DNA of 44,574 nt from a bacterium (GCA_021846765.1 JAJZWH010000001.1:1-44574), one strand, 5' to 3'; counted from the first letter of the stretch, positions 2,699 through 35,042 are shown. Numbers and translations: made by a program. Notes: generated from the sequence alone by a model not told the origin.

Positions 2699-4546
2699 TT
2701 GAAAATTAAAAAAATATTTAATTATGCGAAAACTTATAAACTATTAGTGTTAGCCTTTCTGGCATTAATAGTCGGCCTAATTTTTTATTTCACTAACCAC
2801 CAAACCATTTCTGAATGGATTATGGGTACCGTTGCCATACTCGAATCGCTGCCCCTAGTGAAATCAATGTGGGAGGATATCCGTAGTGGTGCTTATGGAA
2901 TTGATATACTTGCACTAACGGCCATAATTACTGCTGTCATTTTACGCCAAGACATTGCCGCAATCATTATAGTTATTATGCTAACTGGTGGTGAAAGTTT
3001 AGAAGATTATGCCGAGAAAAGAGCCAATAGCGAACTAGATGCCCTACTTAAAGGATCGCCTCAACAGGCTCATGTAATTAGGGGCAGAAAAACTCTAGAT
3101 ATTAAGGCTTCAGAGGTAAAAGTTGGCGATAAAATTATTATTAAGCCTGGAGAAACCGTGCCTGTCGACGCTCTGATAATCGAAGGAGAAAGTAGTTTTA
3201 ACGAAGCAAGCTTAACTGGAGAAAGCTTACCAGTCATGCATTCGGTTAATGATCAAATTTTAAGTGGCTCACTAAATAGTGATCGATTGGTTACAGCTAA
3301 AGCTATTCACACGGCAGAAGACAGCCAATACCAACAAATAGTCAGACTAGTACAAAACGCAGCTAAGTCACAAGCGCCTTTCGTTAGATTAGCAGATCGT
3401 TATAGCGTGCCTTTCACTATTGCAGCCTATATTATAGCCATTAGTGTTTGGTTAGTTAGCCATCAAGCAATACGCTTCTTAGAAGTAATAGTAGTAGCTA
3501 CACCCTGCCCTCTATTACTAGCTGCACCTATTGCTCTGATATCCGGCATGAGTAGATCTAGTAGGTATGGTATTGTTGTCAAAACTGGTTCAGCGCTGGA
3601 AAAATTAGCTGAGGCTAAAACTATTATTTTTGATAAAACCGGAACACTAACAACTGGTATCTTAAGTCTTGATAGTATAAAAGCTATTGCACCCTATACT
3701 AAAGATGAAGTATTGGCACTAGCCGCTAGCGTTGAACAAAACTCTAACCATGTCATAGCTCAAGCAATAGTCAAAGCTGCTAATAACAAAAATATTAAAA
3801 TAACTAAAGTTAAACTAGTCAAAGAAATATCTGGCCAAGGATTAAGAGCTACCTATAAAGGAGATCAACTTATTTTAGGTAGAGGTGATTTTATGGCAAA
3901 ACAAGGAATAGAATTGCCCAAAAAAATTAAGAATCAACAGCAAACCATAGTATATATTGCCATTAACAATAGTTTAGCCGGAATAATTTATTTAAGTGAC
4001 AGTTTAAGACCAGAAGCCAAAAGTACTATTCAAAAAATACTTAAATTGGGCATTAAACGAACAGTTATGATAACCGGAGACAATAAAAGCACAGCCGAAA
4101 ATATAGCAAAAGATGTCGGCATTAAAACAGTCTATGCCGAAACTTTGCCAGGTGAAAAACTCCATGCCTTAGATGACATTAGCCAACGTCCAATTATATT
4201 TGTAGGTGATGGAGTCAACGATGCTCCAGTATTAACTGGTTCTGATGTAGGTATTGCTCTAGGCGCAAGAGGTTCAACTGCAGCTAGCGAATCAGCAGAT
4301 CTAGTTATTATGACTGATGATTTAAGTAAGGTTGCAACAGCCTTAGAAATAGCCAAAAAAACCTTTTCGATAGCCAGACAAAGTATTCTATTTGGTATTG
4401 GCCTGAGCTTAATATTGATGATTATTTTTGCAACTGGTAAGTTTAAACCAATCTATGGAGCCTTACTACAAGAAGTGGTAGACGTTGTGGTTATCTTTAA
4501 CGCACTAAGAGCACACAGCATTAAAGTTACCAATGAGACAAAATAA
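2699..4546 (+). CDS. P1B-type (heavy-metal) P-type ATPase without an N-terminal metal-binding domain
   Basis: TTG start. Carries DKTGTLT, the TGES-like TGESLPV, GDGVNDAP, and a transmembrane TPCP motif (VVATPCPLLLAAP). Confidence 0.85.
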   Translation: MKIKKIFNYAKTYKLLVLAFLALIVGLIFYFTNHQTISEWIMGTVAILESLPLVKSMWEDIRSGAYGIDILALTAIITAVILRQDIAAIIIVIMLTGGESLEDYAEKRANSELDALLKGSPQQAHVIRGRKTLDIKASEVKVGDKIIIKPGETVPVDALIIEGESSFNEASLTGESLPVMHSVNDQILSGSLNSDRLVTAKAIHTAEDSQYQQIVRLVQNAAKSQAPFVRLADRYSVPFTIAAYIIAISVWLVSHQAIRFLEVIVVATPCPLLLAAPIALISGMSRSSRYGIVVKTGSALEKLAEAKTIIFDKTGTLTTGILSLDSIKAIAPYTKDEVLALAASVEQNSNHVIAQAIVKAANNKNIKITKVKLVKEISGQGLRATYKGDQLILGRGDFMAKQGIELPKKIKNQQQTIVYIAINNSLAGIIYLSDSLRPEAKSTIQKILKLGIKRTVMITGDNKSTAENIAKDVGIKTVYAETLPGEKLHALDDISQRPIIFVGDGVNDAPVLTGSDVGIALGARGSTAASESADLVIMTDDLSKVATALEIAKKTFSIARQSILFGIGLSLILMIIFATGKFKPIYGALLQEVVDVVVIFNALRAHSIKVTNETK

Positions 4547-5153
4547 GAGTTACAGCTATGGGAATAAGTAAGTTATCTAATCCGTAGACTGAAAAATTCT
4601 CTACAGCGGTAGCTGCTAAAGCAGTTAATAAAATCAATACTACGCTCAACCCAAGATTGACCAATGAACTAACGATTATCAATATCAATAATGAAGTTAT
4701 TAAGAACGTCGCACTACCCACTAAACTTTTAGCCGCTCCAAAGACTTTATACATGGTGCTTTTACCAAAACGCACTCCAAAAATCGCGGCTAAACCGTCG
4801 GCAAGACTCATCTGCAATAAAGCTACGGCATAGATCCAATCATTTTTAGTAATAAAAGTTATGCCCCCAACAGCCAAAGCAAAACAAACTTCACCCACGC
4901 TAAATCTTTCTATTTCATGAATTGAGGCAAAAATATTTAAGCCTTTAGATATCAACACCACTAGTAAAAAAGCTAAACTAATTATTCTAATCCAATCCCA
5001 ACTAATATACAGTGGCCAAAAAGCCACAAAACTACCAACGAAGATATGAATTATTTTCCTAGACAACTCAGACTGGGAAGCTTTATTGCGCCAATGATGC
5101 TCATTAGCAAACAGAACAAGTCCGACAATAAGAACACTTAGAATAATATACAT
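4527..5153 (-). CDS. Polytopic membrane protein of the CTP-dependent polyprenol (dolichol/phytol) kinase / CdsA-like family
   Basis: 208 aa and mostly hydrophobic. The motif SLADGLAAIFGVRFGK resembles the GDGxAxxxGxxxGK signature of this family. Its 3' end overlaps the ATPase 3' end by 20 nt (convergent). Confidence 0.55.
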   Translation of the reverse strand: MYIILSVLIVGLVLFANEHHWRNKASQSELSRKIIHIFVGSFVAFWPLYISWDWIRIISLAFLLVVLISKGLNIFASIHEIERFSVGEVCFALAVGGITFITKNDWIYAVALLQMSLADGLAAIFGVRFGKSTMYKVFGAAKSLVGSATFLITSLLILIIVSSLVNLGLSVVLILLTALAATAVENFSVYGLDNLLIPIAVTLILSHW

Positions 5154-8915: not shown

Positions 8916-10419
8916 ATTCTACTGCCCTAGTTTCTCTTATAACATTAACCTTTATAGTTCCCGGATATTGCATAGAAGATTCAATTTTCGTCGCTATATC
9001 TCTAGCTAATTTAATAGCGCTTAAATCATCTATTTGCTGAGGTCGAACAAAAACCCTCACCTCTCGCCCAGCACTTATTGCATAAGACTTCTCTATGCCA
9101 TTAAAACCATTAGCAATATTTTCTAGTTCTTTCATTCTCTCGCCAAAGTTTTCGGCACTAATATTTCTAGCTCCAGGTCGGCTTGCACTAATTGCGTCAA
9201 CTACTCTAATAATCAAGGCTTCGACACTAGTTGCTTCAACATCATCATGATGTTGTTCAGCGGCTAAAGCAACCTCTTCGGGAGCTCCATATTTACGCAA
9301 CATTTCACCTGAGATATGGTGATGCTTACCTTCAATTTTATGAGTTAAGGCTTTACCTAAATCATGAACTAAAGCAGCATATTTAGCTGTTTTAACGTTA
9401 GCACCCACTTCTTCGGCTATCATACCAGCCAAATGGGCCATTTCAGTTGAGTGCTTTAAGACGTTTTGTCCGTAACTAGTACGATACTTAAGCTCTCCTA
9501 ACAAATGTAGGATCTCTTTAGGAATACCAATAATCCCAACTTCTCTAGCAGCATCTTCTCCGGCTCTAATAACGTCTTTTTCAACGTTTTTTTGAGCTTT
9601 TTCAACAACTTCTTCGATTCTTCCTGGATGAATTCGTCCATCTTTCATCAACATCTCCAGAGTTTGTCGAGCAACTTCCCTTCTAACAGGATCAAACGAA
9701 CTTAAAACTACATAACCTGGAGTGTCATCAACCATAATATCGACACCAGTAGCACGCTGTAAGGCCTGAATATTACGACCTTCTTTACCAATAATACGAC
9801 CTTTCATTTCTTCGTCTTCAAGCTTAATAGAAGTTATCGTACGTTCAGCCGTAACCTCACTGCTCATCCGTTCCATAGCAGTAGTAATAATTAGAGCTGC
9901 CTGCTCTTCGGCATTCTCTTTAGCTTCATTCTGTAATTTGGAGACTAATCCAGTTAAATCACCCCGAATATCCCGTTCGGTCATTTCCATGAGTTTTTCA
10001 GCTGCATCGGTTTTAGTAAGTTTAGCTATTTTTTCTAATTTATCTTGCTGCTTAATCCGTATATCTCTAATTTCATCTTTTAATTTTTCCACTTCTAGCT
10101 CGCCGGCCCTTAATCTTTCAGTCCTTTTGTCTAAATCATCAAGTTTCTTATCTAATGATTCTTCTCTAACAACTAATCGATTTTCCAATTCTTTCAATTC
10201 TTTACGACGTGTTTGTTCATCGCGTCTAGCTTCCTCGGCTAACTTAAGAGCATCCTCTTTAGCTTGAGCAACTAATTTATCGGCTTCTTTCTGTGCCTTC
10301 TGTTTTTCTTTTTCTACTTGAGCCTCTAAGTTTCCTTGACGTCTTTTGCTAACAACACTACTAGCACCAAAACCAACACCAAGACCTACCACAGTCAGTA
10401 CTATGGATAATATGACCAT
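8905..10419 (-). CDS. rny: Ribonuclease Y
   Basis: N-terminal TM helix, a long Glu/Lys coiled coil, a KH domain (GRIIGKEGRNIQAL) and an HD domain (LVHDLGKA). Confidence 0.9.
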   Translation of the reverse strand: MVILSIVLTVVGLGVGFGASSVVSKRRQGNLEAQVEKEKQKAQKEADKLVAQAKEDALKLAEEARRDEQTRRKELKELENRLVVREESLDKKLDDLDKRTERLRAGELEVEKLKDEIRDIRIKQQDKLEKIAKLTKTDAAEKLMEMTERDIRGDLTGLVSKLQNEAKENAEEQAALIITTAMERMSSEVTAERTITSIKLEDEEMKGRIIGKEGRNIQALQRATGVDIMVDDTPGYVVLSSFDPVRREVARQTLEMLMKDGRIHPGRIEEVVEKAQKNVEKDVIRAGEDAAREVGIIGIPKEILHLLGELKYRTSYGQNVLKHSTEMAHLAGMIAEEVGANVKTAKYAALVHDLGKALTHKIEGKHHHISGEMLRKYGAPEEVALAAEQHHDDVEATSVEALIIRVVDAISASRPGARNISAENFGERMKELENIANGFNGIEKSYAISAGREVRVFVRPQQIDDLSAIKLARDIATKIESSMQYPGTIKVNVIRETRAVEFAK

Positions 10420-10650
10420 ATGTTTCCTTTCTTATTTTGGTGCTTTTATAAAAACTAGCAATATTTTTACTTTTAATTAAACAGTCGCTATCACTTCTCT
10501 AGTTAACTTAAAATAGTAAACTACTAATTTTATAAGTACCAAATTTTAATCACAGTTATAAATCAAATGCTTGACTTGAGAATCGTCTCTCTAAAAGAAC
10601 AAGCTAATTAAACTATACCTTGGATTGCTTCAATTGGTCAATCTTAGATC

Positions 10651-11043
10651 TTACTTTCTAGGTTTAGTAATCCTAGCAGGAGAACCATAAAAAGGCGTAA
10701 CAATGTGTTCATCTCTTCCTTTTTTGAGTTGATCAATAATGGTAATTATCCAATCATCACCCCGAGAACCAATAATTGGAATGTTCAGCCCATAAGCCAT
10801 AGCATTGGCTACACTTAAACCAATCCTTAATCCAGTAAAACTGCCCGGTCCCGTAAAAACCCCTAAACCATCCAAATTAGTTAAATTCAAAGAAGCCTTA
10901 CTGAGTAATTGATCAATTTTTAAATTAATGGTTTCGGCTAAATGTCGATCGGCTTGCCAAGATAATTGATTTAATAATTGTTTATCTCTATATAAATAAA
11001 GTTCTGCTATTGGTTGACTAGTTTTTAAGATTAAGATAATCAT
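10651..11043 (-). CDS. tsaB: TsaB (YeaZ)-like t6A biosynthesis protein, short form (130 aa)
   Basis: Carries GPGSFTGLRIGLSVANAMA. Only the N-terminal half of a usual ~230-aa TsaB is present. The start overlaps tsaE by 4 nt. Confidence 0.7.
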   Translation of the reverse strand: MIILILKTSQPIAELYLYRDKQLLNQLSWQADRHLAETINLKIDQLLSKASLNLTNLDGLGVFTGPGSFTGLRIGLSVANAMAYGLNIPIIGSRGDDWIITIIDQLKKGRDEHIVTPFYGSPARITKPRK

Positions 11044-11495
11044 TTTAGTGGTTCGCCCTTTAATAAATAAGCAAATTCTGGAGGAGCGTCAATAGATATC
11101 TGTCGACTATCTAAACCGGTAACTTTAATGTTGATTACAACTCTGTCTTTAGGCAAAACATCTTGTACTATCCTCGACCACTCAATTATAACAACAGCCT
11201 TAGGATTAGCTATTTCTTCGGCTAACATATCCTTAATAATCCCCGGATCAGTCAAACGATAAAAGTCAAAATGAGCAATAGACCCGCCATTAAAAGAATA
11301 ATCGTTACGAATGGTAAAACTTGGACTAGAAACAAAATCTTGACTTCCAGCAGCTAAAACCATGCTTTTGACTAACGTAGTTTTGCCGCCACCGACGTCA
11401 CTGATTAATTCAATCGTTTCTCCGCCTCTTAAGTTGCGACCAATAACCGATGCTAATCGTTTCGTAGATTTTAAATCTGATGAATTAAATAACAT
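11040..11495 (-). CDS. tsaE: TsaE (YjeE) t6A ATPase
   Basis: Walker A GGGKTTLVK and the HFDFYRL motif. Confidence 0.8.
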   Translation of the reverse strand: MLFNSSDLKSTKRLASVIGRNLRGGETIELISDVGGGKTTLVKSMVLAAGSQDFVSSPSFTIRNDYSFNGGSIAHFDFYRLTDPGIIKDMLAEEIANPKAVVIIEWSRIVQDVLPKDRVVINIKVTGLDSRQISIDAPPEFAYLLKGEPLK

Positions 11496-11594
11496 TCTAT
11501 AAATAATCTCTCATACTTTTTATTATCTGTTATTTGCTAATAAAAAACTAGATTATCTAGAGGTTTTTCTCTGCTAAGATTATAATGATTATTA

Positions 11595-12110
11595 ATGCTT
11601 CAACTTAGCACTTCACTACTCAATAAGCCAGTATTGTCATTACGAACAGGACAACCTATTGCCCAAGTCTCATCAACCCTAATCAATCCCAATAATTTAA
11701 AAATAGAAGGTTTCTATTGCACCGATCGTTTTAATGCTAAATCAATGATTTTGCTCTATCAAGATATTCGAGAATTTATCGATAAAGGTTACGTTGTCAA
11801 TGACCATGATGCACTTAGCGAACCGCATGATTTAATACGCTTAGCAGATATTATTAAAATTAATTTTAAGCTAATTGGCAAGCCGGTAGTCACTATCTCG
11901 AAAGAAAAAGTTGGCAAAGTGTCAGATTATGCCGTAGAAACCCAAACAATGTATATTCAGAAAATTTACGTTTCCCAATCTCTACTTAAAAATTTTAGCG
12001 GGGGAAGCTTAAGTGTAGATCGCAACAATATTAATGAAATAACCGACAAAAAAGTTATCATTAATGACCTACTTAAAAACAGTCCAATAACAGCCCCAGC
12101 TACAGCTTAG
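11595..12110 (+). CDS. Probable PRC-barrel domain protein (two repeats)
   Basis: LLNKPVLSLRTGQPIAQVSS... and LIGKPVVTISKEKVGKVSDY... resemble PRC-barrel repeats. Assigned from memory only. Confidence 0.4.
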   Translation: MLQLSTSLLNKPVLSLRTGQPIAQVSSTLINPNNLKIEGFYCTDRFNAKSMILLYQDIREFIDKGYVVNDHDALSEPHDLIRLADIIKINFKLIGKPVVTISKEKVGKVSDYAVETQTMYIQKIYVSQSLLKNFSGGSLSVDRNNINEITDKKVIINDLLKNSPITAPATA

Positions 12111-17192: not shown

Positions 17193-17630
17193 ATGCATAA
17201 AAAATTAAATTCGAAAGGTTTTACCCTAATCGAATTGCTAATAGTAATTATAATAATCGGAATATTGGCAGCGATATCATTTGTGGCTTATAGTGGAGCA
17301 ACCAATAAAGCACATGAAGCAGCAGCACAATCTACACTTCACGAAGCTCAAAGTAAAATGGCTGAATACTATGCAGACAATAGTAGCTATCCGGCCACTA
17401 TTACAGATTTCGATAACTGGATAGCCAGCTCTCAGGGAGGCAATAATACCTCACTAAGCCAAACTTTCGTTGGTCCTAACTATACATATACGGTTACCCC
17501 CACGGGTTGTGGTGATACCGTAGCCAGCGGTGGAGCAATTACTACAGGATCAACTGCATGCACAGGCTATAGCTTAACTGCTTCTGGCAGCATGTGGGGC
17601 AGTTCTACGGGTCTAACAGTCACCAACTAG
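17193..17630 (+). CDS. pilA: Type IV pilin (probable major pilin)
   Basis: Class III signal KG|FTLIELLIVIIIIGILAAI with Glu at +5. Has its own promoter and terminator. Confidence 0.85.
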   Translation: MHKKLNSKGFTLIELLIVIIIIGILAAISFVAYSGATNKAHEAAAQSTLHEAQSKMAEYYADNSSYPATITDFDNWIASSQGGNNTSLSQTFVGPNYTYTVTPTGCGDTVASGGAITTGSTACTGYSLTASGSMWGSSTGLTVTN

Positions 17631-17666
17631 AACCACACGATAAACATTAAAGTACTAGTAAAAATA

Positions 17667-17703
17667 TAAAACCGTTTGGGCATCAGCTTAAGCGGTTTTA
17701 TAA
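17667..17703 (+). terminator. Intrinsic terminator-like hairpin after the major pilin
   Basis: TAAAACCGTTTGGGC-ATCA-GCTTAAGCGGTTTTA forms a ~15-bp stem including G-U pairs, followed by a T/A-rich run. Confidence 0.5.
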
Positions 17704-17719
17704 TGAATACTAATCGGCA

Positions 17720-18136
17720 ATGAAACAGAAAAGTAGACCACAATTTAATAACAAAGGTTTTACCTTAATCGAATTGTTAGTAACAGTTATGGTCTTAGGT
17801 ATTGTTATTGTGAGTTTGGCAGGAATGTACTATAGCACTCAAATAGCTGAAGTTAAAAGTCAGCATTACGATCTAGCAGTGAGGGCCGCACGAACCGAAA
17901 TAGAAGATCTGCGCAATACAGGATATGATTCATTAACACCTGGTAGCACTATTAACTTTAGCTCTAGCTTACCCCCAAGCCTACCTTCAGGCGCTAATGG
18001 TAGTGTTGCTGTGAGTGAACCAATGTCTGGCTTAAGAAGAGTCGATGTGACAGTTACTTACAGTGAATTTGGAAGTACTCAAACCATTACCTTAAGTTCG
18101 GATATCGGGATAATTGGTATAGGACAAGCCCAATAA
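17720..18136 (+). CDS. Prepilin-type minor pilin (PilV-like)
   Basis: N-terminal KG|FTLIELLVTVMVLGIV. Confidence 0.75.
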   Translation: MKQKSRPQFNNKGFTLIELLVTVMVLGIVIVSLAGMYYSTQIAEVKSQHYDLAVRAARTEIEDLRNTGYDSLTPGSTINFSSSLPPSLPSGANGSVAVSEPMSGLRRVDVTVTYSEFGSTQTITLSSDIGIIGIGQAQ

Positions 18137-18137
18137 A

Positions 18138-18809
18138 ATGAAAAATATCCTCAATCATAGACAGGACGGCTTTACTTTAGTCGAACTGCTATTAGTAATG
18201 ATTATTATGGGTATCGTTGGCTTAGCTTTAACTAATTTCATTTCTACCTGGCTACAAACTGCCGGGATTAGTCAAGCCAGAGCCAATTTACTAAATAGTG
18301 CCGAAATTGCTTTGGATGACGCTAACAACGACATTATGCTATCTGGTAATGTCGACCAAACAAACCGTTGGCCAGATCCTAATGGCCCAGGAGGATCACC
18401 CTATGGTTGGCAATCGAATAGCCAAACTTTAATCTTGGCTAAAGTAGCTACCGATAGTAGCGGTAATCCAATTTTTCTAGACAGTTCAGATTACATAACT
18501 CAAAAAGATGATGTTATCTATTTTCTAAACGGGACTAATCTTTACCGTCGAGTTTTGGCTTCTAATAGCACGAATGACTCAGCCGTTACTACCTGTCCAG
18601 CTTCAGACGCTACTTCTACTTGTCCTCCAGATACTCTTATAGCATCGGGAGTAACCAATTGGTTGGTGTCTTATTATAATGCCCAAAACCAAGTAGTTAC
18701 GCCCAGTAGCGCGCGTTCAATTCAACTATCAATAACTTTAAGCGAACCTTATGGTAGTCAAATTATCAGTGCTAGTTATACTACAAGGATGGTATTTAGA
18801 AATGTTTAA
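18138..18809 (+). CDS. Prepilin-type minor pilin (PilW-like)
   Basis: N-terminal DG|FTLVELLLVMIIMGIV. Confidence 0.75.
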   Translation: MKNILNHRQDGFTLVELLLVMIIMGIVGLALTNFISTWLQTAGISQARANLLNSAEIALDDANNDIMLSGNVDQTNRWPDPNGPGGSPYGWQSNSQTLILAKVATDSSGNPIFLDSSDYITQKDDVIYFLNGTNLYRRVLASNSTNDSAVTTCPASDATSTCPPDTLIASGVTNWLVSYYNAQNQVVTPSSARSIQLSITLSEPYGSQIISASYTTRMVFRNV

Positions 18810-27335: not shown

Positions 27336-27412
27336 GGGCCCATAGCTCAGCCGGTTAGAGCACCTGCCTTTTAAGCAGGGTGTCGTGGGTTCGAGTCCCA
27401 CTGGGCCCTCCA
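27336..27412 (+). tRNA. tRNA-Lys (anticodon TTT), CCA encoded
   Basis: Acceptor GGGCCCA/TGGGCCC, anticodon stem CCTGC/GCAGG with loop CTTTTAA, T arm GTGGG-TTCGAGT-CCCAC. Confidence 0.9.
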
Positions 27413-27495
27413 ATCTATCCCGAGTTAAAAACTATCGCAACTAAGAGAGGGAGTATATAAAGTCCTTAGCGGGAATAATCTGCTAAAATATTCTT

Positions 27496-28152
27496 GTGAC
27501 CAACCAACAAATAATTCAACAAACCAAAGATTACGTAGAAAAACAATTCAGTGGCGAGGGAACTGGCCATGACTGGTGGCATATGTATAGGGTCTGGAAA
27601 CTAGCAAAACATATAACCTCCAAAGAATCTAAAGCTGATATGTTTGTGGTTGAGTTAGGTGCTTTGCTCCATGATATTGCAGATTGGAAATTCAATGATG
27701 GCGATATGGAAGCGGGACCAAAAGCTGCTCACAAGTGGCTTGAGTCCTTAGGTGTTAACGAAGACATAATTCAAGCAGTTGAAGACATCATACGTAATGT
27801 TTCATTCAAAGGCGCACAAGTTAAACAAAATATGAATTCACTTGAAGGTCAAATAGTCAGCGATGCTGATAAGCTTGATGCGGTTGGGGCTATTGGGATT
27901 GCCCGAACATTTGCATATGGAGGAGCTCATGATACCCCAATTTATGACCCAAATATAAAACCTGTTAATCATAAAACATTTGAGGAATATAAGAACAGTA
28001 AGTCGCATACCATTAACCACTTTTACGAAAAGTTGTTGCTTCTAAAAGATAAGCTATATACACAAACCGCTAGAGATATTGCCACTCATAGACACGAATT
28101 CATGCAACAATACCTAGATGAGTTCTATAAAGAATGGGATGGTGAGCTTTAG
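27496..28152 (+). CDS. HD-domain phosphohydrolase (YedJ-like)
   Basis: GTG start. Carries GHDWWH...LLHDIADWK...DADKLDAVGAIG. Confidence 0.8.
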   Translation: MTNQQIIQQTKDYVEKQFSGEGTGHDWWHMYRVWKLAKHITSKESKADMFVVELGALLHDIADWKFNDGDMEAGPKAAHKWLESLGVNEDIIQAVEDIIRNVSFKGAQVKQNMNSLEGQIVSDADKLDAVGAIGIARTFAYGGAHDTPIYDPNIKPVNHKTFEEYKNSKSHTINHFYEKLLLLKDKLYTQTARDIATHRHEFMQQYLDEFYKEWDGEL

Positions 28153-28180
28153 AAGCCATAAACTTATTAAATAACCCCTA

Positions 28181-28309
28181 CTAGGAATAGACTGAGCTTA
28201 ATCGTTTCTTACTAAGTTGTTCTTGTCTGTATTGATTATCCAAAAGAACTCTCCATCTAAGGAGTTCTTCAACATAAATATATAACTTAATTCCTTGGTG
28301 GGCCTCCAA
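28181..28309 (-). CDS. Mini-gene copy A (42 codons, TTG at the repeat edge): LEAHQGIKLYIYVEELLRWRVLLDNQYRQEQLSKKRLSSVYS
   Basis: One of three gap-free paralogous units. The frame is open to the same TAG in all copies and the substitutions are enriched for synonymous changes. No SD lies upstream and the start codon is uncertain. Confidence 0.5.
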   Translation of the reverse strand: MEAHQGIKLYIYVEELLRWRVLLDNQYRQEQLSKKRLSSVYS

Positions 28310-28402
28310 ATGTTCTTCACAACAGTTTGTAAGATAAGAATATTAGAATTTTAGTTGCATAACTATTGATTCTTGCAGCAATTTGTTTTTCCGTATCTGT
28401 TA
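28303..28402. repeat. Repeat module 2, copy A (~100 nt)
   Basis: Aligns with 29876-29974. The first ~60 nt are about 90% identical by hand count (CCTCCAAATGTTCTTCACAACA.TTTGTAAGATAAGAA...GAATTTTAGTTGCATA). Confidence 0.8.
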
Positions 28403-28495
28403 AAAGGTCTAATCTTACTAGGTGTTTTTGTTTGCACTTATCTCAATTAGCTGTTTTGATTGTAAATATTAATAAATAGTTGATAAAATTATCCC

Positions 28496-29233
28496 ATGTC
28501 AGAACAAGTTGATATAAAACAAGTAAACATAGCTTTTGCTGGTCTAACAGCCGCAGGGAAAACAACTCACTCCAAAATATTAGCCGAACAATTAGGTTTT
28601 GAGTATATTTCGGCCACTAAAACCATACTTGATATTATGGGTATGGATAAAGACCCCGATAGAGCCTGGTTAGATAGTTATGATGAAATCGAAAAAGCTC
28701 GTGAAGGTGACAGAGCTGACATTGAACTTGAAGCACGTATGACTGAATTAGCAAATACTCATAGTGGTCTTGTTTTGGATACCTGGGCTATGGCTTGGAT
28801 TTATAATGGCTCAACCCCTATGGTAAGATTATGGATAGAATCAGATGAAGATTCTCGTACTAGAAAGTGCTTTGTATCACAAGGTTCAGATAAACAGCGT
28901 GATTTAGACGCCAGCAGACTGTTAATAAACCAAAAAGATGGTGATACTAGGACTAAATTCATACGAAGACTGGGCTTTGATTTATTTACCGATAGACATC
29001 GATATGATGTTATTGTCGACAATACACAATTAATACCTGAAGCAACGGAAGCGTCAGCTAAAACTGGTATAAAAATATTCTCTCCTGTTGTATTAGCGGC
29101 TGTAAAATACTGCATTAATAAAATCACTAATCCATCTTTTGACATAGACAGTAATTATGCCAAAAATCTTATTAGAAGCTCAAATGGCATGATAATAAGC
29201 TTAGGAAGCGAGCATAAGGAGTCTTATGAGTAA
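28496..29233 (+). CDS. P-loop kinase, cytidylate-kinase-like (archaeal-type CMK/AAA_18-like)
   Basis: Walker A GLTAAGKTTHS. Overall resembles (d)NMP kinases. The C-terminal ~70 aa are unassigned. Confidence 0.6.
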   Translation: MSEQVDIKQVNIAFAGLTAAGKTTHSKILAEQLGFEYISATKTILDIMGMDKDPDRAWLDSYDEIEKAREGDRADIELEARMTELANTHSGLVLDTWAMAWIYNGSTPMVRLWIESDEDSRTRKCFVSQGSDKQRDLDASRLLINQKDGDTRTKFIRRLGFDLFTDRHRYDVIVDNTQLIPEATEASAKTGIKIFSPVVLAAVKYCINKITNPSFDIDSNYAKNLIRSSNGMIISLGSEHKESYE

Positions 29234-29780
29234 ATCAGAAATTGTATTAATCACGGGGAACGTAAATAAAGTGCGTGAATATGAACGTTTATTGGGTGTG
29301 CAGCTTGATTATCAAAATCTTGATTTGCCTGAAATTCAGGCTACTGATGTTAGACAGGTAGCTCGCAACAAAGCAGAGAACGCTTATGGGATCGTCGGTC
29401 GTCCATGTTTTGTCGACGATACGGGTCTAACGATTGAAGCATGGGGTCAATTACCAGGAGCATTAATTCGTTGGTTTCTCGATAACGTAGGCAATGAAGG
29501 ATTACTTAAAATGCTAGATTCAAATCAATCTCGCTCTGCTTACGTTACAACGGCTATTGGGTACTGTGATAAAAATGGGTTTAAGCTTTGCGAAGGACGA
29601 ATTAATGGAATAATAGCCAATGAGCCAAAAGGTGACAATGGGGTTGGTTATGATACAATCTTTATTCCTGAAAACCAGACTAAAACATTTGCAGAAATGA
29701 CCAATGAAGAAAAAGATTCTAGATCTATGCGTGCCTTAGCAGCAGCTGCAATGAAAACTGATTTGCAGATTGGGGCATGA
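29226..29780 (+). CDS. rdgB: Non-canonical purine NTP pyrophosphatase (RdgB/HAM1, ITPase)
   Basis: Carries VLITGNVNKVREYE, FVDDTGL, and GYDTIFIP followed by TFAEM. Overlaps the kinase gene by 8 nt. Confidence 0.8.
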   Translation: MSKSEIVLITGNVNKVREYERLLGVQLDYQNLDLPEIQATDVRQVARNKAENAYGIVGRPCFVDDTGLTIEAWGQLPGALIRWFLDNVGNEGLLKMLDSNQSRSAYVTTAIGYCDKNGFKLCEGRINGIIANEPKGDNGVGYDTIFIPENQTKTFAEMTNEEKDSRSMRALAAAAMKTDLQIGA

Positions 29781-29852
29781 CATCTATACCAACTGTTTAA
29801 GACTTATGCAGACCTCAATTCACAGATAAATATCTGGGAAGCATGTAGTTTA

Positions 29853-29878
29853 GTTGCAATAGTTTCACACAAAGACCT
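29853..29878. repeat. Repeat module 3 (26 nt, GTTGCAAT...CCT), copy B
   Basis: GTTGCAATAGTTTCACACAAAGACCT matches the 30597 copy at 21/26 and the 32479 copy at 19/26. Confidence 0.7.
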
Positions 29879-29974
29879 CCAAATGTTCTTCACAACACTT
29901 TGTAAGATAAGAAGTATGGAATTTTAGTTGCATACCTAAGCTTCGCATCGGCAATTCGTTTTCTCCATCTGTTA
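29876..29974. repeat. Repeat module 2, copy B
   Basis: See 28303-28402. Here it directly abuts module 3 with no mini-gene in between. Confidence 0.8.
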
Positions 29975-30047
29975 TCAAGTTCTATATCACTTTGTCTATT
30001 CCACTTATGCTTGCTACATCGCATAAAAAAGACTTTAATAGAATATT

Positions 30048-30551
30048 ATGAGCAAAGGGGAAGATTTAGGAGATAGAACAACCGAAGAATTTTCTAGAGC
30101 AGTTAGCGAAAAGATTTTGGGTGTTTTTGCGGTACGTAGAGAATTTAGGGAAGTAAACGCTCGCCGACATAAGACAGAGGAAGAGGCAACCTTTCGAGCA
30201 CCTAAAGGTTTTGTGTTTAGAGTTGTAGCTTTGAGTGATGGGGCGTTGACTTCTATTCACGACGGGCATAAACCAAAGCCTTGGTATGAAGAACGAAAAC
30301 GTGGCGATATAGTTTATGCACCTGTAATAGATTGCCATAGAAAAGATGGATTTACTTGGTCAACCTATACGTCATGGCTAAATGGTCCTCTAGAGTTTGA
30401 ACTTCCATCTTATGTGGCAAGTAGGACGCCGACAAGTATAAATAATGAGGACGTTCAAATTGACTTAGTTAGGGTTGAAGAGCTTGTTGCTGCACATACA
30501 AGGCGTGAGCCTTTGTCTAGAATACAGTTGGAAGAAGATGCTACTGTTTAG
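30048..30551 (+). CDS. Hypothetical protein (167 aa)
   Basis: Clean ORF that looks G+C-richer than its neighbours by eye. No recognisable motif. Confidence 0.55.
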   Translation: MSKGEDLGDRTTEEFSRAVSEKILGVFAVRREFREVNARRHKTEEEATFRAPKGFVFRVVALSDGALTSIHDGHKPKPWYEERKRGDIVYAPVIDCHRKDGFTWSTYTSWLNGPLEFELPSYVASRTPTSINNEDVQIDLVRVEELVAAHTRREPLSRIQLEEDATV

Positions 30552-30596
30552 TTATATAGTCTGATAATAAATATCTCTTCATTTATGTTAAGGATG

Positions 30597-30622
30597 GTTG
30601 CAATCACTTCACACAAGGCCCT
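30597..30622. repeat. Repeat module 3, copy B'
   Basis: GTTGCAATCACTTCACACAAGGCCCT. Its end plus the next 5 nt (GGCCCTCCAAT, 30617-30627) is identical to the tRNA-Lys 3' end (27404-27414). Confidence 0.7.
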
Positions 30623-30679
30623 CCAATAATTTCATTTCTAGACCCCTATTTATTTAGAGGGTTTCTTATATTAATAAGT

Positions 30680-31450
30680 ATGGGTGCTTACAATACAGAA
30701 ACTTACGAAATCAGTCCGCACTTTAAGTATTCTATCGCAGACAACCCTTCATTAGACAGTTTAAAACAACTAGCAAATATTGATATAAAGAGCGAAACAA
30801 GTGAATTTAGTAAAGCTGAGTATATAATAGGCTTCTCTCATCAGTTATTTACGCACAATGGAGACAACGAACCATCTGCTGCTGACCCACTAACTATACT
30901 CAGAGAGGCAAAAGAAGGGCAATCGTTTCGATGTGTTGAATATAGTACGTTGGCTATGGGATTGCTGTGGGCCTACAAAATACCTGCCAGAACTATTGGG
31001 CTGAAAACATGTGACGTAGAAATTCGTAAATATGGTGCTGGGCATGTAGTAATTGAGTTCTGGTGCAAAGATTATAACAAATGGGTTATGTGTGACGTGC
31101 AAGCAGGTATTATCCCTAAACATAATGAAATTCCAATATCTGCCTATGAGCTATCAAATTATCTTAAATTTCATGAAACTATTACTTTTGCACCTATAGA
31201 ACACTCCAGATTCAAACAAAATAGTAGATATGGCGACAAGAAAAGCTATGAAGAATGGATAAAAGACTATCTATGCTTTATAGATACACCCCTAGACTTA
31301 ACGTTTGATATTAAAGATAGACGAAAACAGCAAATTGTAATGTTGGTGCCACTTGACAAAAAATATCCAAAATCTTTTCAGGGATTGTTTGACATGAATG
31401 CCCTGTATACTCATAGCGTAAAAGACTTTTACCCAGAACTACACATATAA
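30680..31450 (+). CDS. Transglutaminase-like cysteine peptidase superfamily protein
   Basis: Cys-His-Asp spacing: FRCVEYSTLA..., GAGHVVIEFW..., WVMCDVQ. Confidence 0.65.
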   Translation: MGAYNTETYEISPHFKYSIADNPSLDSLKQLANIDIKSETSEFSKAEYIIGFSHQLFTHNGDNEPSAADPLTILREAKEGQSFRCVEYSTLAMGLLWAYKIPARTIGLKTCDVEIRKYGAGHVVIEFWCKDYNKWVMCDVQAGIIPKHNEIPISAYELSNYLKFHETITFAPIEHSRFKQNSRYGDKKSYEEWIKDYLCFIDTPLDLTFDIKDRRKQQIVMLVPLDKKYPKSFQGLFDMNALYTHSVKDFYPELHI

Positions 31451-31456
31451 CTCCCA

Positions 31457-31594
31457 CTAGGAATATATCGAACTGAATCGTTTCTTGCTAATAAGCTCTT
31501 GCCTGTATTTGTTATCCAGCAATCCTCTCCATCTAAGAAGTTCTTGGGTGAAAATATATAACTTAATTCTTTGGTGGGCCTCCATGTTACTCAT
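31457..31594 (-). CDS. Mini-gene copy C (core 42 codons from ATG 31585; in-frame ATG at 31594 gives MSN-MEAHQRIKLYIFTQELLRWRGLLDNKYRQELISKKRFSSIYS)
   Basis: The ATG at 31594-31592 overlaps the TGA of the upstream 288-aa gene (ATGA), which suggests translational coupling. Confidence 0.6.
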   Translation of the reverse strand: MSNMEAHQRIKLYIFTQELLRWRGLLDNKYRQELISKKRFSSIYS

Positions 31595-32457
31595 GTTTTA
31601 TATGACGGATTGCAATAGTCACAATATCCTGCATAAGCAGTTTTTTTCTGATGAGGAAAAATTACGTCTTGGGTGAATTTGCATTTATCACACTCGTAAA
31701 CATCATACAAAGGGATGTCAGTCAGTCTCCCGCACTGTTCACAGGGTAAGCCTGGTTTAGGCGAAATCCTATGAAAACCAGGAGTATTACAGCTAGGACA
31801 TAATCTTTTTATATTTTCTATTAGGTCTTTAGTAGCTACCTCTATGTTTTTCATTCTTGATTTATTAACATGCGCCCTAAAGTCTGTTTCAAGCCATATT
31901 GATTTGTATTTCTCTAGATAGTTTGTGGCAATTTCAATAAGATTATCTTTAGTTACTATTCCCTTAACCATATTTTTATATTTTTTCTCTGAGCTTCTTA
32001 TGACAATGCCATGTTTTGGGAAGTTAATGTTATCTGCAAACTCTAAAACTTCTTCAAGGTTATTGGCTGTAGTATTTTGTGCATAACTGACTATCTCTAC
32101 ATGACCACCAAATATTTCCAGACCGAGTTTATTATCTATAAAAACAACTATTTCGGTATTGGTTATGCCAAAAGGAGCTGCTGGGTGTGGACCAAAGGTA
32201 CCTTCACTGGCAATTCCTAAATCTAAGTTCAATAACTCCATTGCAGCTTTAGCTTTAATGATTGCTGTTTCTTTTTGATTAGCGGGTCTTTCTTTATCTA
32301 GGGTAAAAGTACCGAACTTATCTGTATCTAAGTCTGTGGGTACTAATACTTCTATTCCAAGTTCCTTCATAAATAGAGGTGCTATGACTTGTTCTTTTTT
32401 ATGCTTTGTCCCTAAGGCAGCTTTTCTAGAATTCAATAGTGTACTTATATTAGTCAT
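31591..32457 (-). CDS. Uncharacterised 288-aa protein with a C-terminal double CxxC zinc-ribbon
   Basis: CPSC...CEQC and CDKC...CDYC in the last 70 aa. I do not recognise the N-terminal ~210 aa. Confidence 0.65.
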   Translation of the reverse strand: MTNISTLLNSRKAALGTKHKKEQVIAPLFMKELGIEVLVPTDLDTDKFGTFTLDKERPANQKETAIIKAKAAMELLNLDLGIASEGTFGPHPAAPFGITNTEIVVFIDNKLGLEIFGGHVEIVSYAQNTTANNLEEVLEFADNINFPKHGIVIRSSEKKYKNMVKGIVTKDNLIEIATNYLEKYKSIWLETDFRAHVNKSRMKNIEVATKDLIENIKRLCPSCNTPGFHRISPKPGLPCEQCGRLTDIPLYDVYECDKCKFTQDVIFPHQKKTAYAGYCDYCNPSYKT

Positions 32458-32478
32458 TTTATAATTATATTAGAACAT

Positions 32479-32504
32479 GTTGCAATAGATAAACAATCAA
32501 ACCT
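32479..32504. repeat. Repeat module 3, copy D
   Basis: GTTGCAATAGATAAACAATCAAACCT. Immediately followed by the mini-gene unit D. Confidence 0.6.
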
Positions 32505-32514
32505 ATAACTCCCA

Positions 32515-32661
32515 CTAGGAATATATCGTACTTAATCTTTTCTTGCTTAGCTGCTCTTGCTTATACAGAATATCCAAAAGTTGTCGCCACCTAAGGAGTT
32601 CTTGGGTGAAAGTATATAACTTAATTCTTTGGTGGGCCTCCACGAACTGTATTTCATTCAT
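32515..32661 (-). CDS. Mini-gene copy D (core 42 codons from GTG 32643; in-frame ATG at 32661 gives MNEIQF-VEAHQRIKLYTFTQELLRWRQLLDILYKQEQLSKKRLSTIYS)
   Basis: Same frame, length and stop as copies A and C. Lies upstream of, and on the same strand as, the 288-aa gene. Confidence 0.55.
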   Translation of the reverse strand: MNEIQFVEAHQRIKLYTFTQELLRWRQLLDILYKQEQLSKKRLSTIYS

Positions 32662-32759
32662 TTTTCTGTTTAAGTTAGGTAAGTTGTATCTGTAAATAGG
32701 GCTGATTTCTGTGGGGTAAACTTTTTGGTCTTTTTTAACTGAAAATCCAGCAGGAAATA

Positions 32760-33618
32760 TTAAGTCTTTGGATTGGCTACTCTATCAACGTGTTGTGGGT
32801 TGTTAGGGTCAAACTTAGCTTGTGATAAATAATTAAACACTTCAGTTGCAGACCTACCATTTTTTAGTTGATTAGTGATATATTCAGCCATCTGTTTGTA
32901 GCCAACATAGTATGCAATATCTTTAGTAAAGATTGCTTGCTTAGTACCCAAGTTATCACCCCTACTACCTCTGTAGATACGGTCAATGTGTCCCCATACT
33001 CTAGGAGCTAGTGATGATATCGCTGCTTCGTCAGCACCTTGTAGCTGTAGCCTTACTAGCTGACGCGCATAGCTTGATTTCAAACATCTCTTTACGAGTT
33101 CTCTGAACTCCATCAACAGTACCAAGAGCTAAAGCAATATCAACATAACGGTCGTATGCTTTATCAGGAAGCTGTCCATTCACAGCTTCTTCTGCTAATA
33201 CTCCGAGTCCTTCTTCAGCATCTAAATAACCTGCAAGTCCAGTGGCTAGTTTCTTATCGCCAGTTTTATAGCCATTCTTTCCTCTAAGAGCATGGACTAG
33301 TAGCTCATGCGCCAGTAATGCACGCGCGTCTTTAGGCGAAGCAGATTCACGACGAGACGCAATCTTTATTTTACGGTCAGAGGCTTCGACAGAAAGCGAA
33401 GTACCGTCGGTTGAAACAACTTGCCATTCACTCCACTCAGGGTCATTATTATCTGTCAAGTCCCCGAAATCTTGGACACTTTGTCTCGGACCTCTGTTAA
33501 CATGACTTTTCCGATGAAGGGACTCTTCAGAATTATGTGTAAACTTGTATATAATATTACATGGTCTAGATATGTTAGACGAAACAGCTATTCGAGAAAA
33601 AGCCGACGAAGATGGCAT
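32760..33618 (-). pseudogene. Decayed HExxH metalloprotein gene (DUF1704-like), frameshifted and 5'-truncated
   Basis: ORFs 33031-33618 and 32760-33125 overlap in different frames. HELLVH plus EEGLG motifs sit in the first ORF, and the second continues the same protein. There is no credible N-terminus. Confidence 0.6.
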
Positions 33619-34030
33619 AACTCATATATCTACAGGAGTTGCTGTTGTTAAAGATGGTCAAATTCTGTTGGTGCGCCGCTCAAAGGATGACTTTCTTGGA
33701 GGTTATTATGAATTACCTGGTGGCGGTGTTGATAATGGAGAAACAATCGAACAAGCCGCAATGCGTGAAATCAAAGAGGAAACAGGTTTAGTGCCTTCTA
33801 AAGTTATAACAACATTCAAAGGATTTGATTATAAAACAGATAAAAAGCCATTCGTAAGACAAGTTAATTTAATTATCGAAGCTAAACCTGGAGAAGTTAA
33901 GTTAAGCCCTGAGCATGATGACTTTTTATGGGCTAACAAAGATGACTTAGGCAATATCAAGATGACTGAAAATATGATTGATTGTGTTTATGATGCGTTC
34001 TCTAAGCTAAATGCCTTGTTTTACGTCTAG
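33572..34030 (+). CDS. Nudix hydrolase
   Basis: Nudix box GGGVDNGETIEQAAMREIKEETGL. I prefer ATG 33572, because the TTG at 33545 overlaps a perfect TATAAT (33550-33555). Confidence 0.8.
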   Translation: MLDETAIREKADEDGITHISTGVAVVKDGQILLVRRSKDDFLGGYYELPGGGVDNGETIEQAAMREIKEETGLVPSKVITTFKGFDYKTDKKPFVRQVNLIIEAKPGEVKLSPEHDDFLWANKDDLGNIKMTENMIDCVYDAFSKLNALFYV

Positions 34031-34041
34031 AGAATTAAATT

Positions 34042-34611
34042 TTAAGTTTTGTTCTTAACCCACTTCTTGAATTCTTCTACGCTTTTAACATTATTTCTTA
34101 AAACCGCTTCATAGATATTGAAACTATCTGTTTTAATTTCTTTATCATTTCTAGCTGCTTTTAACTCAAGAATTATCTTTTTAGTCTCATTATTGAGTCT
34201 ATCCTTTATCCAATCATTATTGATTCTAAGGGTATCTTCGTTCCCAAACCAAATATCCACTTTCCATCTATTTTTAGAGAAATCATTTTTTACACCTACA
34301 TAATAAGCCTTAGGAAATTCTGGATGATTTTTAGAACTATGCTTAACAAAATCGTAATACAAATAACCGTTCCATTGGTTTTGTTGGATAAGCTGATTTA
34401 ATGCCTCTAGTGCAGCTACTCTGGCCCTATCTGTAGGAACTATTACATATATATCAAGGTCTGGCCCTAGCATTAAGTTATAATCATAACTTCCAACAAT
34501 TTTGACTTCTCCAATTCTAGAAAGCAGCGAATAAATGCGTGAGTAATCTAGAAGCTTATCCGCCTCCTCGTGCCACATTCTAGATAAAGTCAGAAGTCCA
34601 ATTATTTCCAT
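34042..34611 (-). CDS. Pol-beta-superfamily nucleotidyltransferase-like protein
   Basis: GS...DLD signature (VKIVGSYDYNLMLGPDLDIYVIV) followed by a helical C-terminal domain. Confidence 0.55.
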   Translation of the reverse strand: MEIIGLLTLSRMWHEEADKLLDYSRIYSLLSRIGEVKIVGSYDYNLMLGPDLDIYVIVPTDRARVAALEALNQLIQQNQWNGYLYYDFVKHSSKNHPEFPKAYYVGVKNDFSKNRWKVDIWFGNEDTLRINNDWIKDRLNNETKKIILELKAARNDKEIKTDSFNIYEAVLRNNVKSVEEFKKWVKNKT

Positions 34612-35042
34612 CTTACTATTTTATAATTATAGTGGTTTAAGTCATGATAGGACGCATTAGATAAAAAAGAAAGTTACCCAAAGAATATCGGTTAGATAGT
34701 AATTCGGTTACTCTAGTTCTCATTATGAAGAAAACTATGTTTAATGCAATTATTGAAGAAAAACTACCAAAATACCTAAAAGCTGATGTTAAAAAAATCA
34801 ATCATTGAAGTCAGCAGCATGCACAGTAGGGCAGTATTTAGAGCCCTGAATCGTAGTAGGAAACGATCTAACTGAAAATCTCAGCCTAAACTTGGTAAGT
34901 CAAAAAATACTGATCTGGTATGTGTTTTAGAGCAAGATCAATATTATTTAGTATCAGAACACCACTTAGTTTAATAAACCCATCGGTAGTTATATTGTAT
35001 TTGCCAATAAGTTAAACGATAATATTATAAGCTTAAGCATTT

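Follow-up and report, generated by a model that had tools for sequence, protein, structure and literature searches.

Conserved 42-codon units beside tRNA-Lys as probable displaced 3′ ends of a large serine recombinase gene in a Saccharibacteria-type genome

Introduction

Three short units, called A, C and D, are found downstream of a tRNA-Lys(TTT) gene in a 44,574-nt stretch of bacterial DNA from a Saccharibacteria-type genome (GCA_021846765.1 JAJZWH010000001.1:1-44574), referred to here as the window. Each unit contains an open 42-codon frame on the minus strand, and a preliminary description, made from the sequence alone, had taken them for paralogous copies of an autonomous, unannotated mini-gene. 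We consider it very probable, at roughly 0.9, that the units are instead the displaced 3′ ends, that is, the last 42 codons, of a gene for a large serine recombinase (LSR), together with an attachment (att) half-site, left behind by integration at the end of tRNA-Lys. The copies would then be the att-site scars of separate integrations at tRNA-Lys rather than gene duplicates, and would mark the borders of acquired cassettes. What appears to be a conserved orphan mini-gene would in this way be accounted for without a new protein.

In the proposed mechanism, the free element would be a circle in which attP lies inside the recombinase gene, ca 42 codons before the stop. The 6-bp core of attP, CCTCCA, would recombine with the identical 3′ end of the tRNA-Lys gene (the discriminator plus CCA), and the tRNA would stay intact. 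After integration, the body of the recombinase gene would adjoin the tRNA and read into its antisense strand, and the last 42 codons, encoding a linker and a long α-helix, would come to lie at the opposite end of the insert, as attR. Repeated insertion at the same tRNA would stack the elements in tandem, each older insert being bounded by a tail, and most inserts would later lose the recombinase gene and keep their cargo and the orphan tail. The coding-type substitutions would go back to a time when the tail belonged to working recombinases and was under selection there, and the invariant first ca 33 nt would be the recombinase-binding half-site together with the tRNA-end core.

Results and Discussion

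The geometry of the split gene can be seen directly in L023, a locus in the same neighbourhood of a distant relative. The tRNA-proximal gene of this island is a 577-aa open reading frame (ORF) of the Resolvase family that crosses the core into the antisense strand of tRNA-Lys (...ADFTK-VEGPVGFEPTT...). It reads the core in the frame that the mini-ORF uses, and the unit forms the far end of the island. When excision was simulated by joining the two cores in silico, an in-frame fusion was obtained, reading ...ADFTK-VEVDQEFNLYTYIDELIRWRQLLDNSYRQVQLNKRRENALYS up to the stop codon (in abbreviated form, ...ADFTK-VEVDQEFNLYTYIDELIRWRQLL...ALYS and stop). Five complete elements (L023, L025, L030, L031 and L032), 4.5–8 kb in length, have the order unit, cargo, LSR gene and core, followed by tRNA-Lys antisense, and their cargo includes restriction-modification, OLD-nuclease and reverse-transcriptase genes.

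At E ≤ 1e-10, 382 members of the recombinase family were found. Among the 114 members examined, about 88 end in tRNA-antisense translation, and six (P0044, P0030, P0091, P0092, P0098 and P0129) have an unsplit native tail with the motif EL[IL]RWR that is homologous to the mini-ORF, an example being ...ADSTK-MEVDQGTNLYTLVDELIRWRSLLDNRFKQYRLNMGRQKELYS in P0044. At the DNA level, an intact LSR gene in L027 is matched by a model of the unit over its final 140 nt (E=1e-20), including the conserved end that follows the stop codon.

A junction of this kind is also present in the window. Unit D (32501-32642, minus strand; ORF 32515-32643, or to 32661) is a tail contiguous with a recombinase remnant upstream of it, at 32643-32769 on the minus strand, which is the 3′ part of an LSR gene (...DLIFPAGFSVKKDQKVYPTEISPIYRYNLPNLNRKMNEIQF) in frame with the unit, the rest of the gene being deleted. 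The remnant matches the L023 enzyme in tblastn with E=0.004, and the segment 32635-32769 on the minus strand matches the pre-core segment of the recombinases, with 67% identity over 45 aa to P0090 (E=9e-17) and with 78 family members matching there. Furthermore, the flank of unit D equals the attP flank of L028. Judged from these matches, unit D and the remnant together read as an attP-type, unsplit junction. The idea that the window copies are fragments of a longer upstream ORF was tried for all of them and is true only for unit D. The window has no cognate recombinase gene, only the tRNA antisense and the 45-codon remnant upstream of D, and all three of its copies are therefore to be regarded as orphans.

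The parent protein, of ca 555 aa, is assigned to the large serine recombinases, with a predicted activity, by its Pfam domains and by its fold. It carries the Pfam Resolvase catalytic domain, and distant relatives also have the Recombinase domain (PF07508) and the Zn-ribbon (PF13408). The AlphaFold (AF2) model of P0044, with a mean predicted local distance difference test score of 81, has the layout of a large serine recombinase, and the best Foldseek matches to it, at E~1e-13, are full-length serine integrase–att complexes, including those of Bxb1 and phiC31. A search of PDB sequences with the recombinase gave no match. In the same model, a low-confidence linker of ca 20 residues (505-526) is followed by a long helix (526-558), which corresponds to the mini-ORF product. 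The preliminary description had called the product probably helical, and the model agrees with this in placing the tail as one long helix after the linker.

The divergence of the tails tracks that of the recombinases, with a rho of 0.53. A discordant pair was also observed, L029 and L023, in which the recombinase bodies are 84% identical and the tails 38%. This suggests that tails have been exchanged between elements, as would be expected if an older recombinase gene were joined to the unit of a newer element in an array.

The anatomy of the junctions is as follows. attL and attP share the arm that follows CCTCCA, TAGTAAAATCAG, and after it a hairpin and a T-run. The hairpin has compensatory changes between elements (gcccc/ggggc, gcctcc/ggaggc, gtccc/gggac and accgtc/ggcggt); it was located at 14440-14472 in L023 and at equivalent positions in L025, L027 and L029. 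It is embedded in recombinase codons (...KKAPEGA...), and on the tRNA strand it reads as an intrinsic terminator right after CCA, so the element appears to supply its own tRNA terminator; attR junctions retain the terminator of the chromosome. Since CCTCCA is the only sequence common to all four site types, we infer that the crossover takes place within the tRNA discriminator and CCA, which would leave the tRNA intact.

The target, the tRNA-Lys(TTT) gene, is located at 27336-27412 on the plus strand (ARAGORN; Rfam, 74 bits), and its last six nucleotides, CCTCCA at 27407-27412, are the core common to every unit. The invariant 5′ end of the unit, TGGAGGnCCA, mimics the tRNA 3′ end (…GGGCCCTCCA), and the 5′ edge is sharp, with ...TGGGCCTCCA in the unit versus ...TGGGCCCTCCA in the tRNA. 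Correspondingly, the terminal sequence is ...CCCACTGGGCCCTCCA for the tRNA and, on that strand, ...TTTGGTGGnCCTCCA for every unit. The window contains six occurrences of the sequence GGNCCTCCA, where 0.33 would be expected, and five of them, all on the plus strand, belong to the tRNA, to units A, C and D and to a partial element, B2, described further below. Co-variation between the unit start and the tRNA acceptor end was found to be uninformative, as the tRNA end is invariant across the genomes.

The units were found only in arrays adjoining tRNA-Lys(TTT), the same tRNA being present in every locus that extends far enough. These arrays hold one to four co-oriented units between tRNA-Lys and conserved genes, namely RimK/DUF192 on one side and YebC-RuvC or ComEC on the other. 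Their structure is stacked and mosaic: the same cassette head can follow the tRNA or a unit, always immediately 3′ of CCTCCA. The head gtacgacaaatt follows the tRNA in L002 and units in L004 and L013, the head ataatttcattt is found behind the tRNA in L006 and behind relic B2 in the window, and the head aatgttcttcac follows units in four genomes and another partial element, relic B, in the window. Likewise, the cassette made up of the transglutaminase gene and unit C (30609-31584) has a counterpart in L006 that lies directly at the tRNA and is 95% identical, the adjacent core genes being 68% identical.

Concerning the units themselves, A (28167-28308; ORF 28181-28309), C (31443-31584; ORF 31457-31585, or to 31594 from an upstream ATG) and D are co-oriented on the minus strand and align without gaps, with 75–83% identity over 142 nt. 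Unit A, like C an orphan recombinase tail, here with its att half-site, matches the unit model with E=2e-40. In the 129-nt frame the identities are 79.1% (A–C), 81.4% (C–D) and 76.7% (A–D), and all three 42-codon frames end at a common TAG. The positions and peptides of the preliminary description, which had put the identity at about 79–81%, are confirmed by this, and its hand counts of differing codons, 20 between A and C (9 synonymous) and 17 between C and D (7 synonymous), proved exact on recount. Three occurrences of a 29-nt 5′ motif were counted in the window, the expectation from shuffles being none.

Further copies were retrieved with a codon-degenerate pattern for the core K-L-Y-x-[FY]-x-x-E-L-L-R-W-R, and a DNA profile afterwards added more. 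The pattern gave 25 matches, one of them a chance match, at 21 genome loci, mostly in metagenome-assembled genomes (MAGs) of Saccharibacteria type. For the coding test, a sample of 18 non-redundant, ungapped, independent copies from other genomes was used, with the periodicity scored in the stretch outside the retrieval pattern. The 3-periodicity in these copies is clear (entropy of 0.43, 0.34 and 0.90 by codon phase), the ratio of nonsynonymous to synonymous substitution rates (dN/dS) in the 42-codon frame is 0.14, and 16 of the 18 have this frame open. In addition, distant relatives, ca 40% identical, retain the length and the motif [LMV]EV..G..LY...[DE]EL[ILM]RWR.LLD..[FY].Q..L..[KR]R. On account of the periodicity, the dN/dS and this retention, the unit sequence has evolved as protein-coding in the minus-strand frame, and the coding-type substitution pattern that had been noticed in the three window copies holds on independent ones. 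The antisense ORF on the plus strand was considered as the true gene as well; it shares the wobble positions and has a dN/dS of 0.16, but it was rejected, being broken at varied positions in many copies.

The first 21 nt of the units behave differently from this frame in that they have no periodicity (entropy of 0.36, 0.37 and 0.28 by phase), which confirms that a constraint at the nucleotide level acts there. The preliminary description had pointed out that the first ca 33 nt are more conserved than the protein needs, and one of the three explanations it offered, a recombination site, is the one that fits the junctions. Another, an internal GGAGG acting as a Shine-Dalgarno sequence, has to be given up, since GGAGG is the complement of the CCTCC(A) end of the tRNA instead.

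It is important to consider whether the units could, as first proposed, be an unannotated family of paralogous genes for an autonomous 42-aa protein, for example a small DNA-binding protein, a recombination directionality factor or an antitoxin. The minus-strand frame is the sole consistently open one, its length and motif are kept down to ca 40% identity, and the dN/dS is low; this last value is, however, equally expected if the selection acted on a recombinase tail. Standard annotation misses the unit frames, as had been anticipated, and gene callers sometimes annotate the unit ORF in databases, which can be counted in favour of a gene. So can the position of two copies, unit C, where the upstream ATG (31592-31594) overlaps the stop of the DUF6671 gene as ATGA, and a copy in L001 that lies 8 nt upstream of a gene. 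Against this, the first base of the apparent start codon is free, NTG being ATG, TTG, GTG or CTG, and once CTA. The onset of conservation is abrupt, exactly at TGGAGG, and the sequence upstream is unrelated between copies, with no conserved Shine-Dalgarno sequence or promoter; at the other end, conservation extends ca 12 nt beyond the stop. About 15 of ca 36 non-redundant copies (ca 40%) have stops, frameshifts or truncations, ca 21 being intact, and the disrupted set includes copies retrieved without any codon bias. In the orthologous pair formed by unit C and the L006 copy, the unit is 86.8% identical and the adjacent transglutaminase-like gene 96.7%, so that the orphan unit diverges four times faster than its neighbour, and the L006 copy has lost its stop. 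Finally, a 555-aa recombinase demonstrably has this peptide as its C-terminus, and all of the stand-alone database calls (≤118 aa) have unrelated N-terminal extensions. An autonomous gene is on these grounds very improbable, and the orphan peptides presumably have no function of their own. One of the database proteins, P0005, of 118 aa, begins with the N-terminal part of a cytidylate-kinase-like cassette gene and continues in frame into a tail unit; its sequence points to a recombination or deletion that joined cargo to the unit.

Two other explanations dispense with the coding frame or with the serine recombinase, and we give them still less weight. If the units were attC-like sites of an integron-type system, with promoterless cassettes and a tyrosine integron integrase, one could understand the co-oriented repeats of ca 140 nt between single-gene cassettes, the toxin-antitoxin-rich arrays at a fixed chromosomal location, and the short imperfect inverted repeat at the unit ends of copy A. 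However, neither strand of any of the three copies folds better than shuffles (z of -0.8 to +0.7), inverted repeats of 40 nt or longer are absent, and the middle of the unit is 3-periodic, unlike attC sites. Nor was a tyrosine recombinase (IntI) or an attI found among the ORFs checked beside the tRNA, in the window island and in sampled arrays, and the recombinase that is associated with the units is a serine integrase; such a system has hardly any probability left. Even less credible is a miniature non-autonomous transposable element, a repeat of the repetitive extragenic palindromic type or a structured non-coding RNA with an accidental open frame. The units are multicopy, ca 140 nt long, intergenic and sharp-edged, as such elements would be, but they are confined to one locus beside tRNA-Lys instead of being dispersed, they have neither terminal inverted repeats nor target-site duplications, and they give no signal of folding. 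In an Rfam scan of the window, tRNAs were the only matches and the units had none, and neither an RNA nor a transposable element can explain the strong codon periodicity in one frame. A phage origin of the units was also considered and rejected, since none was present in the viral contigs searched.

Several points weigh against the displaced-tail origin that we favour. Neither the free circular element nor an empty attB was recovered, and excision and integration are deduced from junction sequences only. Most of the window cassettes, which are ca 1 kb long with one gene, have no recombinase remnant at their heads; these recombinase-less cassettes may have arisen by deletion or by mobilisation in trans. 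For elements to stack, they must integrate into a site of attL type, something unusual among characterised LSRs. No long protein was returned when profiles of the 42-aa peptide were searched, the unsplit forms having been found only via the recombinase; the peptide itself has no Pfam match, and a single-sequence search against 5.8 billion proteins gave one match. Lastly, the ATGA overlap of unit C with the upstream gene would permit its translation.

A more far-reaching version of the displaced-tail origin is conceivable, although we regard it as rather doubtful. It holds jointly that the tail swap is a device for directionality or regulation, and that the orphan units are live att sites for the capture, shuffling and exchange in trans of single-gene cassettes that lack a recombinase. 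The circular form alone would encode the native C-terminal helix and would be competent for integration, and the enzyme made from the integrated form would end in a meaningless tRNA-antisense tail. If cassettes are indeed handled in trans, the locus would be, across Saccharibacteria/Patescibacteria, a counterpart of the integron that is run by a serine recombinase at tRNA-Lys, and would offer a ready-made site-specific integration tool for bacteria that are hard to engineer.

A conserved ORF of 68–71 aa was observed directly upstream of the recombinase gene in L023 (12655-12870), L027 (57-263) and L029 (25-240); it is a candidate for a directionality factor or regulator. In L032 the recombinase (10001-11611) belongs to a second subfamily, also at tRNA-Lys, for which the core is read in a different frame (...GG-PS...), and the locus has two tail units, at 3651-3875 and 4614-4837, whose tails carry the motif ELIRWR-x-LL. 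Just beyond the distal unit, and oriented opposite to tRNA-Lys, fragments resembling the 3′ ends of other tRNAs were seen in L023 (ca 9940-9965) and L025 (ca 9940-9966) (TCGAATCCCATGCAAGCTCATACCA; GGGTTCGAGCCCGTCTAGATACTCCA).

Comparison with Known Systems

The closest precedent, by analogy, is provided by the ssrA islands of Dehalococcoides. There, a serine recombinase of ca 540 aa, DsiB, adjoins attL and points toward the target RNA gene, and the islands form a tandem stack downstream of one small-RNA gene, with a repeat of the 3′ end of that gene at the border of each island and, in many of them, no integration module (McMurdie et al. 2011, PMC3146451). The overlap was judged probably non-functional in that work, and no conserved displaced tail was described (PMC3146451). 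The present elements resemble these DsiB/CcrB ssrA islands in that the 3′ end of the serine recombinase gene overlaps attL and in the tandem islands downstream of one RNA gene. They differ in the target, which there is the tmRNA gene (ssrA), entered in the T-loop and with a repeat of 20 bp, and here is tRNA-Lys with a terminal CCTCCA and a 6-bp core. A further difference, in a comparison with the published description, is that the displaced 42 codons are here under purifying selection and are fused in unsplit genes.

An attP inside the integrase gene and a tRNA target are also found for Int (IntP) of the myxophage Mx8 and for the archaeal integrases of SSV type. Integration gives the Mx8 gene a new 3′ end and partitions the SSV gene. 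Those enzymes are tyrosine recombinases, however, so that the present LSR would work alike without being a member of their class. In SSV it is the N-terminal part that is split off, and here it is the C-terminal 42 residues; Mx8 is a phage, in contrast to the 4.5–8 kb elements and ca 1-kb cassettes in Patescibacteria.

With the characterised serine integrases Bxb1, phiC31, A118/LI and TP901-1 the recombinase shares the predicted layout of catalytic domain, αE helix, recombinase domain, zinc ribbon and coiled coil, and the short common core is compatible with a crossover at a central dinucleotide, as in these enzymes. The similarity in sequence is nevertheless too low for a match in the PDB. 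In the characterised systems attP lies outside the gene and the targets are protein-coding or intergenic, whereas here an extra, tethered C-terminal helix is encoded beyond the att core. As to sedentary chromosomal integrons, the fixed locus, the co-oriented repeats of ca 140 nt, the mostly single-gene cassettes, the toxin-antitoxin content and the mosaic sharing are all alike, but IntI and folded attC sites are lacking, the repeat is a gene fragment, and insertion takes place at a tRNA 3′ end instead of attI.

A 2014 report gave the tRNA 3′ end as a target class unknown for serine integrases. In the literature on Saccharibacteria that deals with integrons, hypervariable regions, genomic islands or serine recombinases, we found nothing relevant. 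What is new here is a predicted serine integrase that targets a tRNA in Patescibacteria and whose gene is split by its own att site. All five elements with DNA examined are at the extreme 3′ end of tRNA-Lys. Since the arrays carry toxin-antitoxin, restriction-modification, OLD-nuclease and reverse-transcriptase genes, the tRNA-Lys locus is probably a main point at which accessory and defence genes enter these reduced genomes. The case also illustrates that an ORF without a start codon can have a strong dN/dS signal when it is a piece of a gene that its own recombination site has split. On the practical side, the enzyme, the 6-bp core and the tRNA-Lys attB could become an integration system for the genetics of Patescibacteria, and the unit model is usable to delimit islands in MAGs.

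The Island and Its Surroundings

The variable cassette island of the window extends downstream of tRNA-Lys over 27413-34626, the distal limit being uncertain. Its genes are, in order, HD; cytidylate-kinase-like and Ham1; a gene of 167 aa; transglutaminase-like; DUF6671; a MATCAP-like pseudogene; and NUDIX with a gene of 189 aa. Unit A forms the distal end of the HD-domain cassette (27413-28308) and unit C the distal end of the transglutaminase-like cassette, and neither of the two has recombinase homology upstream; beyond 32642, neither a unit nor a CCTCCA core was found in the island. The window cassettes are shared mosaically with L004, L006, L008, L009, L014 and L015. RelB/YafQ and Phd/YoeB pairs are numerous in the arrays, which also contain various single accessory genes, and no recombinase is present among the window ORFs checked or the sampled array ORFs.

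The preliminary description listed the three full copies correctly and overlooked two partial elements with the same CCTCCA end. Relic B (29852-29881, plus strand; AGTTGCAATAGTTTCACACAAAGACCTCCA), of ca 30 nt, is the distal end of the kinase and Ham1 cassette, and relic B2 (30596-30625, plus strand; GGTTGCAATCACTTCACACAAGGCCCTCCA) is that of the 167-aa cassette, the head that comes after it being the one that follows the intact tRNA in L006. Both relics resemble a decayed tRNA T-arm and acceptor end (GGTTGCAATCACTTCACACAAGGCCCTCCA versus GGGTTCGAGTCCCACTGGGCCCTCCA in the tRNA), and from this resemblance they may be the 3′ halves of tRNAs, displaced by integration of a different, classical kind.

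One cassette head is repeated within the window. Its first copy (28309-28365, plus strand) begins right after CCTCCA (aatgttcttcacaac...) and is 90% identical to the second (29882-29938, plus strand), which follows relic B; the same head stands after units in L004, L006, L010 and L019. The cassette heads, i.e. repeat family D4 and others, have no detectable homology to the recombinase, and the idea that they are recombinase remnants was rejected for this lack of similarity. The repeated head is possibly a promoter or a P′ half-site.

At 32760-33618 on the minus strand, the MATCAP/DUF1704-like gene appears as two overlapping ORFs of 121 and 195 aa, an intact version of 446 aa being present in L008; it is probably a frameshifted pseudogene. 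The segment with tRNA-Lys and the island is inverted relative to the RimK/DUF192 and YebC/RuvC flanks when the window is compared with L016, L019 and L021. Elsewhere in the window, at 17193-18809, three adjacent ORFs have in common a 49-nt repeat that encodes a prepilin-type N-terminal motif (KGFTLIELL), and they probably form a pseudopilin gene cluster.

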